In this document: positions 38,899 through 62,943 of the stretch, piece after piece | How the letters are laid out: every line of letters begins with the position of its first letter | Position numbering within the stretch: the first letter of the stretch is position 1 | DNA from: an uncultured Nitrososphaerales archaeon | GTDB lineage: Archaea > Thermoproteota > Nitrososphaeria > Nitrososphaerales > Nitrososphaeraceae | Direction: 5' to 3' | DNA length: 64,000 bases | NCBI GenBank assembly: GCA_963695855.1 | Contig: CAVOHZ010000003.1 | Coordinates: 96,001-160,000 of the forward strand | Made by a program: the position numbers and the translations under genes | Notes under the pieces: model-generated | The model's database searches: none | The model's input: the letters and a program-made list of their open reading frames with translations, nothing else | Told to the model about the DNA's origin: nothing

Positions 38899-39954
38899 TT
38901 ATTTTGTGTTCATCATAATTTTTATATTGCTTTTATATGGAGGAAAAATGATGCCTTTTTCCGTTATTATGGATGTGATAAGATCCGGAGGAGTAATATC
39001 AAACGCAGGATTTATTACTTTTATATTAGTAGGTGCAATATTTTTTTTCCCTATCTTTGTAACTTCTTCCTTAGGACGTTCTTCTATCACAATATCGTCA
39101 ATATCATTCTTTAAATCAAAGCTAGATAATGGAGCAGCAACGTAAAATGGTATATTATGGTTTTTAGCCAAAACAGCTATTTGGTAAGTTCCAATTTTAT
39201 TAAATACATGACCCGTATGCAAAATTCTGTCTGCACCAACTATAACATGTTTAATCCCGCCTTTTGTCATAAGATATCCAACTGCTGTGTCAGGAATGAT
39301 GCTAACATCAATATTGTCGTATTGTAATTCAAATGCCGTTAATCGAGAGCCTTGCATAACAGGTCTTGTTTCAGTAGCTATAACACGAATCTCTTTTCCA
39401 GATTCTTTAGCAGATCTTATTACACCTAATGCTGTTCCATATGCCACAGTAGCTAAAGACCCTGCATTACAATGCGTCATTATGGTGTCTCCATCTGAAA
39501 AAAGAATTTCGCCTATACTGCCCATTGATCGGTTAATGAAAATATCCTCTTCTGCCATTTGAATTGCTTCGTCTAACATGATCTGCCTCACTTTAGAAAC
39601 GCTCTGAATATTTTGTATCTTTCGCATTAAACGATCTAGACCCCATTGAAGATTAATTGCAGTAGGCCTAGTTGATCTAATTACGTTATAGGCTTTGTTT
39701 AAATCTTTTAGTAACGACCCAATATTGCGCGAATTGCTTCTTCTGGCTGCAAGTACTAATCCAAAAGCTGCAGCTACTCCTATGGCAGGTGCTCCTCTAA
39801 CTATCATTTGTTTAATTGCTGCAGCAACATCTTGGTAGGTTTTACAATATACATATGATAACTTTCTAGGTAATTTTGTTTGATCAATTAATATTAGTGA
39901 ATCGTCCTTCCATTGAACTGTAAGAAGCATATTATTACCCTTCATTTTAGACAA
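38899..39954 (-). CDS. mtnA: S-methyl-5-thioribose-1-phosphate isomerase
   Basis: MIVRGAPAIG, RPTAINL, THCNAGSLAT, ETRPVMQGSRLT, NKIGTY, NPAFDITP. Confidence 0.92.
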   Translation of the reverse strand: MSKMKGNNMLLTVQWKDDSLILIDQTKLPRKLSYVYCKTYQDVAAAIKQMIVRGAPAIGVAAAFGLVLAARRSNSRNIGSLLKDLNKAYNVIRSTRPTAINLQWGLDRLMRKIQNIQSVSKVRQIMLDEAIQMAEEDIFINRSMGSIGEILFSDGDTIMTHCNAGSLATVAYGTALGVIRSAKESGKEIRVIATETRPVMQGSRLTAFELQYDNIDVSIIPDTAVGYLMTKGGIKHVIVGADRILHTGHVFNKIGTYQIAVLAKNHNIPFYVAAPLSSFDLKNDIDDIVIEERPKEEVTKIGKKNIAPTNIKVINPAFDITPPDLITSIITEKGIIFPPYKSNIKIMMNTK

Positions 39955-42597: not shown

Positions 42598-43080
42598 TTA
42601 ACCTCCTGTCATTTTAGTAAATTTATTAATCTTCTGCGTTGTAGATATATAATCCAAATTAGCCAGTGCCACTTCAGCAGATTTTCTTACTTCGCAGCTT
42701 TTATCATTCAATGCACGGATTAGTGTTTCTCTGGCTTCCTCTGAACCTATTACTCCTAAGGCTACCGCTGCTTCATGTCGAACGAAAAAACTTGGGTCTT
42801 TATCTACTGCCTCACATAACGGTTTTATCCCGCTGGTAAACCCTAGCTGACCTAGGGAATAAGCTGCTTCATGTCGCACCAATTCATCTAAATCATTTTT
42901 CAAAACAATGCTTATGGGTATTATAGATTCTTCACCGGCAATATCTGCAAATATGCAGACAGCTCTAGTTCTAATGATATGATCAGGATGAAAAAGTAAA
43001 TTCCTAAAAAAATCTCTATTATTGATGTTAAATTCGCTTTCCATCTTACCAAGCAATAAAAGTCTCTCTTTACTATCCAT
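42598..43080 (-). CDS. HEAT-repeat protein with two His-Glu motifs (half deoxyhypusine-hydroxylase-like)
   Basis: LVRHEAAYSLGQLG and FVRHEAAVALGVIG. Confidence 0.75.
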   Translation of the reverse strand: MDSKERLLLLGKMESEFNINNRDFFRNLLFHPDHIIRTRAVCIFADIAGEESIIPISIVLKNDLDELVRHEAAYSLGQLGFTSGIKPLCEAVDKDPSFFVRHEAAVALGVIGSEEARETLIRALNDKSCEVRKSAEVALANLDYISTTQKINKFTKMTGG

Positions 43081-43172
43081 CTTACTTGTCAGTTCAATAG
43101 TTAGATATTTTTAAAAATTTAATCCTTATTAATTTTCATACCTTATTATATTGTTAACAATATTAGTGTTTT

Positions 43173-43634
43173 ATGCGTGTAAGATATTGGCATCTTAACA
43201 TTCAAGAAACACTTAAGTGCAATTACCCACTGGAGAAAATAAATCACTGGGAAATAAAGTGTCTTTGTGGAGATTATGAACATTTTGGAGTATTTTGGTT
43301 TAAGTATGGTACACCTTTTGATAAAGAACCGATTCATGGTATTTGTTTTTATTACAACGAAATAGAAGAAAAAATTGTAAAAGAATTAACAGACTATCTT
43401 TCAAGATTATTTGGTGGAAAGATATTATTTAGACAAACTAGAGTTTTTCTTCAAGGATCCAAAGTAGTTTTTGATCCTAAATCAATTGGAAAATTAGCTA
43501 ATGATTTGAGTCTAAAATTTAATGTACCCGTAGAAATAACTATTGAATTAGAAAAAATATCAGATGAAGAAATAACTGAAAACAATTTTAACTTTCCTGC
43601 TAAAAAGGTCTTACCTATTGTAGGTACGGATTAA
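43173..43634 (+). CDS. Hypothetical protein
   Basis: 153-aa ORF divergent from the HEAT gene; no family recognised. Confidence 0.75.
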   Translation: MRVRYWHLNIQETLKCNYPLEKINHWEIKCLCGDYEHFGVFWFKYGTPFDKEPIHGICFYYNEIEEKIVKELTDYLSRLFGGKILFRQTRVFLQGSKVVFDPKSIGKLANDLSLKFNVPVEITIELEKISDEEITENNFNFPAKKVLPIVGTD

Positions 43635-45553: not shown

Positions 45554-46096
45554 ATGGTGGGTATTGACAAGTTAGATTTAAAATCACTAATTGGAAGCTA
45601 CAAAGACTTTCCTAAGAAAGGAGTGATGTTTAGAGACATCAATCCGCTTTTCAGAAACTGGAAAGTAACTCAAGAAATATCTAAGCAATTCATTAAGAAT
45701 CACGAATTACAAGAAATAGATCTGATAGCAGGAATTGAGTCTAGAGGTTTTACTGTGGCCTCTTTACTAGCAGGAAATTTTAATAAAGGAATGGTTTTGG
45801 TCAGAAAGGCAGGAAAACTTCCAGGAGATACAATAAGAAAAAATTATGAGATAGAATACGGCAATGCCATGATTGAAATTCAGAGAGACGCTGTAAAAGA
45901 GGGGCAAAACATTCTGATTGCGGATGATTTAATAGCCACTGGCGGTACTGCAGCTGCTGCCGCAGAATTAATAGAAGAGATTGGAGGAAAGATTTTTGGA
46001 TTTGCTTTTATTATTGAATTATCTTATCTTGGGGGGGGAGATAAACTAAGGAGTAAAGGTTATGAAGTTCGCTCATTGGTGAAATATGATGAATAG
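45554..46096 (+). CDS. apt: Adenine phosphoribosyltransferase
   Basis: DFPKKGVMFRDI, ESRGF, RKAGKLPG, DDLIATGGT. Confidence 0.95.
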   Translation: MVGIDKLDLKSLIGSYKDFPKKGVMFRDINPLFRNWKVTQEISKQFIKNHELQEIDLIAGIESRGFTVASLLAGNFNKGMVLVRKAGKLPGDTIRKNYEIEYGNAMIEIQRDAVKEGQNILIADDLIATGGTAAAAAELIEEIGGKIFGFAFIIELSYLGGGDKLRSKGYEVRSLVKYDE

Positions 46097-46898
46097 AAAA
46101 ATATCCGAGAATATCAACATAGGAATAATTGGAGGAACAGGAATTTATGATCCTAGTCTTTTCAATGTTATTGAAGAAAGAAAAATTAATACTCCGTTTG
46201 GAGAACCTTCTGATAAAATAACAATATGTTCCTTGGGGAATAAAAAAATTGCTTTCATACCCCGACATGGAAAAGAACATAGATTACCGCCTCACAAAAT
46301 AAATTTTCGTGCAAATATTTGGGCATTAAAAGATTTAGGGGTTAAAACAATTTTGGCTCCTTCAGCTGTAGGTAGTCTAAAGAAAGAATTTAAACCAGGC
46401 AATATAGCTATACCTGATCAATATATTGATTTTACCAAAAAAAGGGAATATACTTTTTATGACGGAGGAATAGTTTGCCACATCTCTCAGGCAGAACCAT
46501 TTTGCAATGATCTTAGGAAAATCATTTGTCGAGAACTAGAAAAGCTAAATTTTTCATATCATTATAAATGTACTTATGTTTGTATCGAGGGTCCGCGATT
46601 CTCAACGAAAGCAGAATCAAATTATTATAGAAATATATTAGACGCAAATATTATAGGTATGACCTTAGTCCCTGAATGTATTCTCGCTAGGGAGATGGAA
46701 ATTTGTTATCTTTCAATTGCAACTGTAACTGATTACGATGTCTGGGCAGACGTGCATGTAACATCTAAAGGGATCGTAAAAACATTAAGTAAAAATGTTG
46801 AAAAAGTAAGAACATTATTGTTAAATACGATACCAAAAATATCAGAAAAAAGAGACAATTGTAATTGCGGTAAATCCCTTGATAATGCTTTAATATAA
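46086..46898 (+). CDS. mtnP: S-methyl-5'-thioadenosine phosphorylase
   Basis: IIGGTG, RHG...ANIWAL, EGPRFSTKAES, GMT...VTDYD. Confidence 0.93.
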   Translation: MMNRKISENINIGIIGGTGIYDPSLFNVIEERKINTPFGEPSDKITICSLGNKKIAFIPRHGKEHRLPPHKINFRANIWALKDLGVKTILAPSAVGSLKKEFKPGNIAIPDQYIDFTKKREYTFYDGGIVCHISQAEPFCNDLRKIICRELEKLNFSYHYKCTYVCIEGPRFSTKAESNYYRNILDANIIGMTLVPECILAREMEICYLSIATVTDYDVWADVHVTSKGIVKTLSKNVEKVRTLLLNTIPKISEKRDNCNCGKSLDNALI

Positions 46899-62256: not shown

Positions 62257-62943
62257 TTACTTATCCATTAATACAATATCCGTTATTTCTAATATACCTC
62301 TTTGTCCATCCCATTTAGTCTTTGAATTAAGTATTTGTAATCTCTTTTCATAGATTGGACAGTCAATTACAAGTGTTTCTGCTTCTCCTCCTTCAAATGT
62401 CACATTAAACCCATATTTCTCGCTTAGCAAAAATAATTTTTCAAGTTTATCTTGATCTATAATTGTGCCTAACCAAGTCTCGTCCAGTCCCATCGCAGAA
62501 ACGCCAACTATGAGTATGGAGAATTTATGAATGAGTAGTTGCTTCATATATGAAAATTGGTCAGCTTCCCATAGTGGAGAATAAAGTATCAAATCATTAT
62601 CTTTACAAATATTATTAAAAATATTTTTTTGAAAATTTGAGAACAATCCTCCATTGACTAATCCTTCGATGTTGAATTCTTCCTTGGCAATTTTTACCAA
62701 ATGATCTAGAGATTTTATTTCATTATCTAAATTGTTAATTGGAATGTTACATTCAATAATTGGTATATTCATAGCTTGAGATTGCAATTTAGGAACCTCT
62801 ATATTTGGGAAGTGAAATAGAAGACTTTCTTCATTAGATGGATATAATGTAATCAAACATTCTATTGAAAATCCTCTTTTCTTAGCAAGATAGATAGCAT
62901 ATGTACTATCCTTACCCCCGGAGAAAAGACTCGCTAGTTTCAT
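62257..62943 (-). CDS. dph6: Diphthine--ammonia ligase
   Basis: SGGKDS PP-loop, PLW, EGGEAETLVIDCP. Confidence 0.9.
   Translation of the reverse strand: MKLASLFSGGKDSTYAIYLAKKRGFSIECLITLYPSNEESLLFHFPNIEVPKLQSQAMNIPIIECNIPINNLDNEIKSLDHLVKIAKEEFNIEGLVNGGLFSNFQKNIFNNICKDNDLILYSPLWEADQFSYMKQLLIHKFSILIVGVSAMGLDETWLGTIIDQDKLEKLFLLSEKYGFNVTFEGGEAETLVIDCPIYEKRLQILNSKTKWDGQRGILEITDIVLMDK

Follow-up and report, generated by a model that had tools for sequence, protein, structure and literature searches.

A candidate single-unit deoxyhypusine hydroxylase encoded by a Nitrososphaeraceae archaeon

Introduction

A stretch of 64,000 nucleotides from an uncultured Nitrososphaerales archaeon (Nitrososphaeraceae; assembly GCA_963695855.1, contig CAVOHZ010000003.1, positions 96,001 to 160,000), hereafter called the window, carries a gene for a protein of 160 amino acids (aa), P0001, that resembles one half of eukaryotic deoxyhypusine hydroxylase (DOHH, EC 1.14.99.29), the iron enzyme by which hypusine on translation factor 5A is completed. 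The window has a G+C content of 32% and also encodes the PriS/PriL primase, GlyRS, PurP, complex I subunits, SRP54 and a diphthamide-synthase-like protein. Nitrososphaeraceae are aerobic ammonia oxidisers. An initial annotation, made from the letters of the window, proposed that P0001 is a half-DOHH from before the duplication seen in eukaryotes, that two copies of it would make up a di-iron hydroxylase, and that the translation factor aIF5A could be its substrate. Here we follow up that proposal by computational analysis.

Hypusine in archaea is an old puzzle. In their accessible parts, papers published between 2012 and 2021 credit archaea with deoxyhypusine synthase and with no DOHH homologue, note that some archaea contain hypusine, and regard the pathway as unsolved (PMC3306375, PMC5178350, PMC6105217, PMC8153317). 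Deoxyhypusine synthase homologues are said, in equally partial text, to occur in every archaeal genome sequenced (PMC5178350), and such a gene is reported for Candidatus Nitrosocosmicus agrestis (PMC8573960). Where the accessible portions of the open-access literature mention deoxyhypusine together with Nitrososphaera, they refer to the synthase only. Searching open-access papers and preprints, we found no paper describing an archaeal DOHH, most subscription-journal papers and supplementary files lying outside that search; the same body of text gave nothing for DOHH combined with Asgard or for K06072, and no hit to "deoxyhypusine monooxygenase" in it was archaeal by title or abstract.

Results

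The half-DOHH gene and the features around it are listed in Table 1. P0001 is built of repeats about 31 residues long, set in tandem, that match PF03130/PF13646, and its Pfam matches are all to generic repeat families, namely HEAT_2 (E 9.8e-17, residues 59-140), HEAT_PBS (1.5e-13) and HEAT (3.3e-8), the first two above their gathering scores. The named DOHHs found in our searches bear the same Pfam accessions, and this generic superfamily thus includes DOHH itself. Two His-Glu (HE) pairs, H70-E71 and H102-E103, lie 32 residues apart in repeats 2 and 3 of the four. An AlphaFold2 model of the monomer, built with 21 family sequences as input (pLDDT 96.2, pTM 0.90), is all-helical and predicts two paired helices at the N-terminus and then four helical hairpins, the HE pairs opening helices 66-79 and 98-111. 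The annotated picture of a 160-aa four-HEAT protein with two HE motifs 32 residues apart is thereby borne out by the translation and by the modelled hairpins, and the strings that had been quoted for it (LVRHEAAYSLGQ, FVRHEAAVALGVIG, IRTRAVCIF and DKSCEVRKSAEVAL) are all found in the translation.

Table 1. Positions in the window of the half-DOHH gene, its motifs and nearby features
Feature	Position	Strand	Remarks
Gene for single-unit DOHH-like protein P0001	42598..43080	-	ATG start, 160 aa; stop codon 42598..42600
Repeat 1 IRTRAVCIF, residues 36-44, HE-free	42949..42975	-	hhalign: pairs with the RYRALF/RFRALF helix opening each DOHH half
Repeat 2 motif LVRHEAAYSLGQ, residues 67-78	42847..42882	-	H70-E71 = CAT GAA at 42868..42873
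Repeat 3 motif FVRHEAAVALGVIG, residues 99-112	42745..42786	-	H102-E103 = CAT GAA at 42772..42777
Repeat 4 DKSCEVRKSAEVAL, residues 126-139, HE-free	42664..42705	-	hhalign: pairs with VRESCEVAL of the DOHH C-terminal half
C-terminal T-G-G, residues 158-160	42601..42609	-	Gly-Gly invariant in the family
AT-rich intergenic spacer, 92 bp	43081..43172	.	Between the half-DOHH gene and its divergent neighbour
Divergent neighbour, 153 aa, no family match	43173..43634	+	Conserved across related loci
Methylthioribose-1-phosphate isomerase gene	38899..39954	-	
Adenine phosphoribosyltransferase gene	45554..46096	+	
Methylthioadenosine phosphorylase gene	46086..46898	+	
Diphthamide-synthase-like gene	62257..62943	-	Pfam Diphthami_syn_2, E 6.5e-58

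Among solved natural proteins the best match to P0001 is human DOHH (4D4Z), with an E-value of 1.6e-18 for residues 37-145 against 29-137 of the chain when the single sequence is used, and of 2.5e-28 (rank 12 of 40) when the family profile is used. The rows ranked above it, 14 in the first case and 11 in the second, are designed alphaRep or HEAT proteins or, as with 7p0h in the single-sequence search, a natural protein fused to one. Designed alphaRep proteins outrank all natural ones in both sequence and fold searches because VR..AA.ALG.IG is the consensus wording of the whole HEAT_PBS class. A Foldseek search with the predicted structure gave 4d4z_A a query TM-score of 0.74, the highest among the matches listed.

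The comparison of families points the same way. An hhalign alignment of the P0001 family with 12 eukaryotic DOHH-like proteins, 9 of which carry the DOHH name, has a probability of 99.5% and an E-value of 5e-23 over 128 columns, and it takes in the helix before repeat 1 as well as the VRES[AC]xVAL wording of repeat 4. P0001 matches both halves of P0137, which is a true DOHH (E 4.9e-66 to 4D4Z), with 38% identity over 113 residues and 39% over 100. Its identity to eukaryotic DOHH halves in general is 33-40%, against 36-39% for those halves compared with each other. In both BLASTP and hhalign the register is that of a DOHH half, with HE in repeats 2 and 3 and HE-free repeats 1 and 4, the HE spacing being 32 in P0001 and the other archaeal relatives and 33 in the eukaryotic halves. 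Through P0137, H70/E71 correspond to human H56/E57 and H207/E208, H102/E103 to H89/E90 and H240/E241, and G77 to G63 and G214. The human motifs and their numbering had been given correctly in the initial annotation: all four motifs are seen in the 4D4Z chain (llkhelayclgqm, mvrheagealgaig, frhevgyvlgql and mvrhecaealgai), and the numbers H56-E57, H89-E90, H207-E208 and H240-E241 agree with the accessible text of PMC9117371.

Roles have been assigned to these residues in the human enzyme. According to those parts of PMC9117371 and PMC3306375 that are accessible, H56, H89, E90, H207, H240 and E241 anchor the di-iron centre, and E57, E90, E208 and E241 together with two glycines bind the deoxyhypusine side chain; one of the glycines is printed as G65 in PMC9117371 and falls at position 63 in our 4D4Z alignment. 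The active site lies between two arms or layers of repeats (PMC8153317, from partial text; PMC9040561). In P0001 and its family, the equivalents of all six iron ligands (H56, H89, E90/H207, H240, E241) and of the substrate-binding E57/E208 and G63/G214 (E71 and G77) do not vary in any of the 81 sequences aligned.

The likeness extends to the architecture. Human DOHH (4D4Z/4D50), yeast Lia1 and P0001 all consist of hairpins of the E-Z/PBS type of HEAT repeat, with HE in repeats 2 and 3 of each four-repeat unit, and the wording of the motifs is alike (xVRHEAAxxLGQ and xVRHEAAxALGxIG). The differences are that DOHH has eight repeats and four HE motifs where P0001 has four and two, that P0001 is half as long and has no linker, and that its repeat 1 is longer, which hhalign shows as some 10 inserted residues. 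As far as can be judged from the sequences, P0001 is truly homologous, as a single unit, to one half of DOHH, and the half-DOHH likeness that had been read from the window alone is upheld by the profile alignment, by the solved structures and by both halves of P0137.

A word-indexed search of 5.8 billion proteins at E<=0.001 returned 1599 relatives of P0001, and the 120 listed of these are 148-215 aa long and 63-95% identical to it; those among them that carry a name from NCBI belong to Nitrososphaera, Nitrososphaeraceae or Candidatus N. gargensis. The resemblance has not gone wholly unnoticed: among the 120 orthologue clusters listed, 13 bear the name "deoxyhypusine monooxygenase" from the automatic JGI pipeline, and "HEAT repeat protein" is the name of most of the rest. 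When one genome for each GTDB species was scanned, at least 598 stretches matched, at least 572 of them encoding relatives, and the best 80 loci were kept; all counts of loci below refer to these 80, which are all Nitrososphaerales-like. By record title 72 are from taxa of the order Nitrososphaerales, 6 from a "Thermoproteota archaeon" only and 2 from a "Nitrosopumilales archaeon", and the closest is in a Nitrososphaeraceae metagenome-assembled genome (MAG), at 93% identity. The family may reach past Nitrososphaerota: an Atlas cluster of 165 HEAT proteins of 169 aa has a language-model score of 0.98, and its few labelled members are mostly Candidatus Bathyarchaeota.

Two RHE[AS]A motifs and a Gly-Gly end are common to all 80 proteins encoded at these loci. 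An alignment of 81 sequences, whose mean pairwise identity is 66%, has 47 invariant positions, including R69-H70-E71-A72-A73, G77-Q78 and V100-R101-H102-E103-A104-A105, R37, T38 and R39 of repeat 1, and E130, V131, S134, A135 and A138 of repeat 4. The conservation of both HE pairs, which the initial annotation had put forward as a check, is thus complete across these Nitrososphaerales-like orthologues. The codons at these sites are at the same time thoroughly mixed (H70 is CAT in 43 and CAC in 38 of the 81, E71 GAA in 45 and GAG in 36, H102 divides 40/41 and E103 58/23), which shows that the residues are held by purifying selection and not by recent common ancestry. All 81 sequences have G159 and G160, and 80 of the 81 have T158, the usual ending being ...MTGG. 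P0122 and P0304, two relatives treated below, likewise end in GG; eukaryotic DOHH and the archaeal relatives of about 280 aa do not. A C-terminal diglycine recalls the ubiquitin-like modifiers, yet the fold of P0001 is helical.

At two loci on two contigs of one MAG (L060 and L069), the gene copies are identical at 147 of 150 residues, which suggests strain heterogeneity or a recent duplication and speaks against a divergent paralogue. We considered a divergent paralogue as a heterodimer partner of P0001 and rejected it, as the window holds no second copy and this pair is nearly identical.

Giant multi-repeat HEAT proteins dominate a search of representative sequences for more distant relatives, and only 3 of the 150 matches listed are shorter than 400 aa (P0122, P0197 and P0213). 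P0122, known from a single contig, is a natural tandem of two P0001-family units in 363 aa, with an HE spacing of 32 and a GG end. Its halves are about 52% identical to the unit in the window and 58% to each other. When P0122 was used as the query, the matches following its single-unit kin were mostly eukaryotic proteins named deoxyhypusine hydroxylase. P0122 differs from P0001 in being a fused tandem, and both fall in one clade. The protein as predicted opens with some 23 hydrophobic residues resembling a signal, a leader which may come from an over-long call of the open reading frame (ORF), because a start like that of the family (MKIIEMEKEY...) is found at about residue 53.

A second group of two-domain HEAT proteins, of about 280 aa and with four HE motifs at a spacing of 32, comprises P0329, P0313, P0324, P0331, P0334, P0336, P0369 and P0322. 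The label "Nanoarchaeota archaeon" is attached to one member and the JGI name "deoxyhypusine monooxygenase" to one, and for P0313 the best natural solved match is again human DOHH 4D4Z (E 7e-17). They share the HE spacing with P0001, and their first motif in each half reads LVRHEAAF-LGE; they differ from it in having two fused units, second motifs of the form VV[KI]HECLMSLG or V[IL]HE[GA]LFALG, a separate clade and no C-terminal GG. By sequence they look like full-length DOHH-like proteins of DPANN-type archaea, and their existence goes against the statement that archaea are without DOHH homologues. That no archaeal DOHH had been identified, as the initial annotation had it, agrees with what is accessible of the literature to 2021; it is to be qualified by the JGI names and by the four-HE proteins of about 280 aa.

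A maximum-likelihood tree of 41 four-repeat units over 115 columns, which is unrooted, groups the N- and C-units of the archaeal proteins of about 280 aa (support 100/99), the single-unit family with P0304 and both halves of P0122 (100/96), and the eukaryotic N- and C-units (96/86). The archaeal clade was the same in an earlier tree of 26 units. On the face of it the three separate clades mean that a single unit was duplicated three times independently, the protein in the window then being no stray eukaryotic half. The idea of a pre-duplication form fits this tree, in which the halves of each lineage cluster together, and a natural tandem of the unit does exist in P0122. Within the limits set by an unrooted tree, a short alignment and repeats that are prone to artefacts, the pattern argues for repeated independent duplications of the single unit.

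It could also be imitated by gene conversion between the halves. Such concerted evolution, together with the lack of a root and the 115 columns, leaves some room for secondary reduction or transfer, in which a DOHH of eukaryotic or two-domain origin would have lost one half and P0001 would perhaps be a decaying remnant. We regard this as highly improbable: the family nests neither within the eukaryotic half groups nor within the archaeal group of about 280 aa, it shares the HE spacing of 32 with that archaeal group and not the 33 of eukaryotes, and the gene is kept in 80 of 80 loci under strong purifying selection.

The half-DOHH gene stands alone on its own strand. The purP gene converges on its 3' end, and the ORF of 153 aa diverges from its 5' end across the spacer, which presumably holds both promoters and has a median length of about 108 bp in related loci. 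A scan for promoters and terminators of the bacterial type, archaeal promoters not being covered, gave 7 sites against 7.0 expected from shuffles and 0 terminators. The 153-aa neighbour has a median identity of 60% over 73 tblastn matches and is predicted by AlphaFold2 to have a mixed beta/alpha fold (pLDDT 94.1). It has no match in Pfam, NCBIfam, the PDB sequences, Foldseek (best E 0.057) or Atlas; a CYTH-like identity was rejected as noise (Foldseek E about 0.06, TM at most 0.2). It is a possible partner of the half-DOHH protein.

Within 4 kb of the half-DOHH gene are those for methylthioribose-1-phosphate isomerase, adenine phosphoribosyltransferase and methylthioadenosine phosphorylase. 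These three salvage enzymes recycle the by-product of aminopropyl transfer in polyamine synthesis. Of the 80 loci only 14-15 share the arrangement, for which local synteny is a more probable explanation than a functional cluster. The diphthamide-synthase-like gene, which concerns another modification of a translation factor, lies 19 kb away, and no link is implied.

Discussion

Taken by its sequence, P0001 is a single-domain member of the DOHH lineage, made of one four-HEAT unit. What is put forward here is a candidate single-unit DOHH that is presumably homodimeric; an annotation pipeline had already registered the likeness as such without comment. That the chains dimerise, which metal they carry, how they use O2 and what they act on is what we infer from this relationship, and the mechanism that we propose can be pictured as follows. 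Each P0001 chain would bind one iron through H70, H102 and E103; the paper on the 4D4Z structure is said to assign three ligands per half to one iron. Two chains would pair face to face, in the manner of the N- and C-halves of eukaryotic DOHH around their pseudo-twofold axis, and the two irons would form an O2-activating di-iron centre enclosed between two repeat layers. The side chain of deoxyhypusine in aIF5A would enter a pocket lined by E71 and G77 of each chain, and the deoxyhypusine would be hydroxylated to hypusine. P0122, the archaeal proteins of about 280 aa and eukaryotic DOHH each fuse two units of their own clade, which, as a Rosetta-stone argument, speaks for two units working together.

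In our judgement the evidence is evenly balanced on whether P0001 is a homodimeric di-iron hydroxylase acting on deoxyhypusinated aIF5A, and several observations weigh against it. One of them is the size of the protein. A single chain of 160 aa has four repeats and two HE motifs and gives the full DOHH complement only as a homodimer; activity would therefore depend on the dimer. The remaining objections concern either the fold or the substrate, and each set leads to an explanation of its own.

As to the fold, P0001 could be a non-catalytic HEAT_PBS protein, a small scaffold, an adaptor or a metal-binding or metal-sensing protein, whose likeness to DOHH reflects descent without a shared function and whose HE residues would be there for binding and not to activate O2. 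The HEAT protein family is dominated by non-enzymes (PMC9040561), and Pfam and NCBIfam see only generic HEAT or PBS-lyase-like repeats in P0001. No NCBIfam model reaches its cut-off, the best being CpcE with 38.6 bits against 330 and NblB with 31.9 against 300, so that P0001 is placed below the equivalog cut-offs of the phycobiliprotein lyases CpcE/CpcF/CpeY and of NblB. The generic HEAT_PBS proteins (MTH187, 1TE4; E. coli YibA, 1OYZ; CpcE/CpcF/NblB) and the designed alphaRep proteins that derive from them have the same repeat type and fold and a very high similarity per stretch, and the idealised repeats of alphaRep match P0001 per stretch, in fold and in sequence, as well as DOHH does. Where the P0001 family has its invariant HE, however, these proteins have variable residues. 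We took as a background the 168 long generic HEAT proteins that are the strongest matches outside the family, with 1094 repeats in all. The two positions after VR are highly variable in them, and HE follows [VI]R in only 7 of the 1094 repeats. Because HE is this rare, two invariant HE pairs in adjacent repeats are a specific signature. Five of those 7 repeats belong to P0185, a 1029-aa protein with an NTPase and a HEAT array, in which WVRHEAAQALG occurs in five repeats, nearly identical and recently copied from one another. As P0185 demonstrates, generic HEAT arrays can give rise to the VRHEAA wording and multiply it, and the HE signature alone is therefore no proof of a DOHH.

The signature is not alone, though. 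HE is found exactly in repeats 2 and 3 and at a DOHH-like spacing, 32 as compared with 33. The six ligand equivalents have stayed invariant through 81 sequences with a mean pairwise identity of 66%, two-unit fusions have arisen repeatedly, and the nearest natural relatives of matching length outside the family are named DOHHs and not generic HEAT proteins. For these reasons we think it clearly unlikely that the protein lacks a catalytic function.

As to the substrate, no gene ties P0001 to aIF5A or deoxyhypusine synthase. The Pfam families of these two proteins are absent from the 75 ORFs scanned in the 64-kb window, and GKHG.AK, which we take to be the aIF5A loop motif, has 0 matches in the window and 0 within 8 kb in the 80 loci. 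We found no report of hypusine in Nitrososphaerota (Thaumarchaeota) in open-access papers and preprints. Hypusine-bearing Crenarchaeota are described, in the accessible text of PMC6105217 and PMC5178350, as lacking a DOHH homologue; another archaeal hydroxylase must therefore exist, and a half-DOHH is not needed. Two features of the family have in addition no counterpart in DOHH: the invariant Gly-Gly at the C-terminus, and the divergent 153-aa gene, which is kept in 68 of the 72 loci having more than 700 nt upstream.

All of this would suit a protein with the same chemistry and another substrate, that is a homodimeric oxygenase with HE motifs and a di-iron or other metal centre that does not act on aIF5A. 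Its substrate could be a small amine or a different protein modified with an aminobutyl group or a polyamine, and the 153-aa neighbour might be involved. The catalytic equivalents are conserved, as this reading demands, and the hydrophobic leader of P0122, if real and not the product of an over-long ORF call, would put that protein outside the cytoplasm. The invariance of E71 and G77 speaks against it, since they are the equivalents of human residues to which deoxyhypusine binding is ascribed, and eukaryotic DOHH is described, in the accessible parts of PMC8153317 and PMC9117371, as dedicated solely to eIF5A. We therefore consider another substrate rather unlikely, and hydroxylation of deoxyhypusinated aIF5A is the reading that we carry further.

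A wider claim can be built on this reading, namely that in the P0001 family DOHH survives as a homodimer of single units, and that this is the first enzyme of archaea to complete hypusine. We offer it as a tentative suggestion, possible and on the whole somewhat doubtful.

Conclusions

A conserved candidate for a half-size DOHH in soil ammonia oxidisers makes a part of the archaeal hypusine question open to simple experiments. It would not explain the hypusine of Sulfolobales or Thermoproteales, which reportedly are without any homologue. If the homodimer is real, the unusual HEAT-repeat di-iron oxygenase began as a symmetric dimer, whose two units were fused later and on more than one occasion, and P0001 would be a minimal model, of 160 aa, for di-iron chemistry in HEAT repeats. 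Were the whole reading true, the eight-repeat DOHH of eukaryotes, the archaeal proteins of about 280 aa and P0122 would represent three independent duplications and fusions of one unit, and DOHH would illustrate how the active site of an oxygenase can originate at the interface of a repeat-protein homodimer. The hydroxylation step of hypusine would then be placed in aerobic archaea, and would not be a eukaryotic invention.

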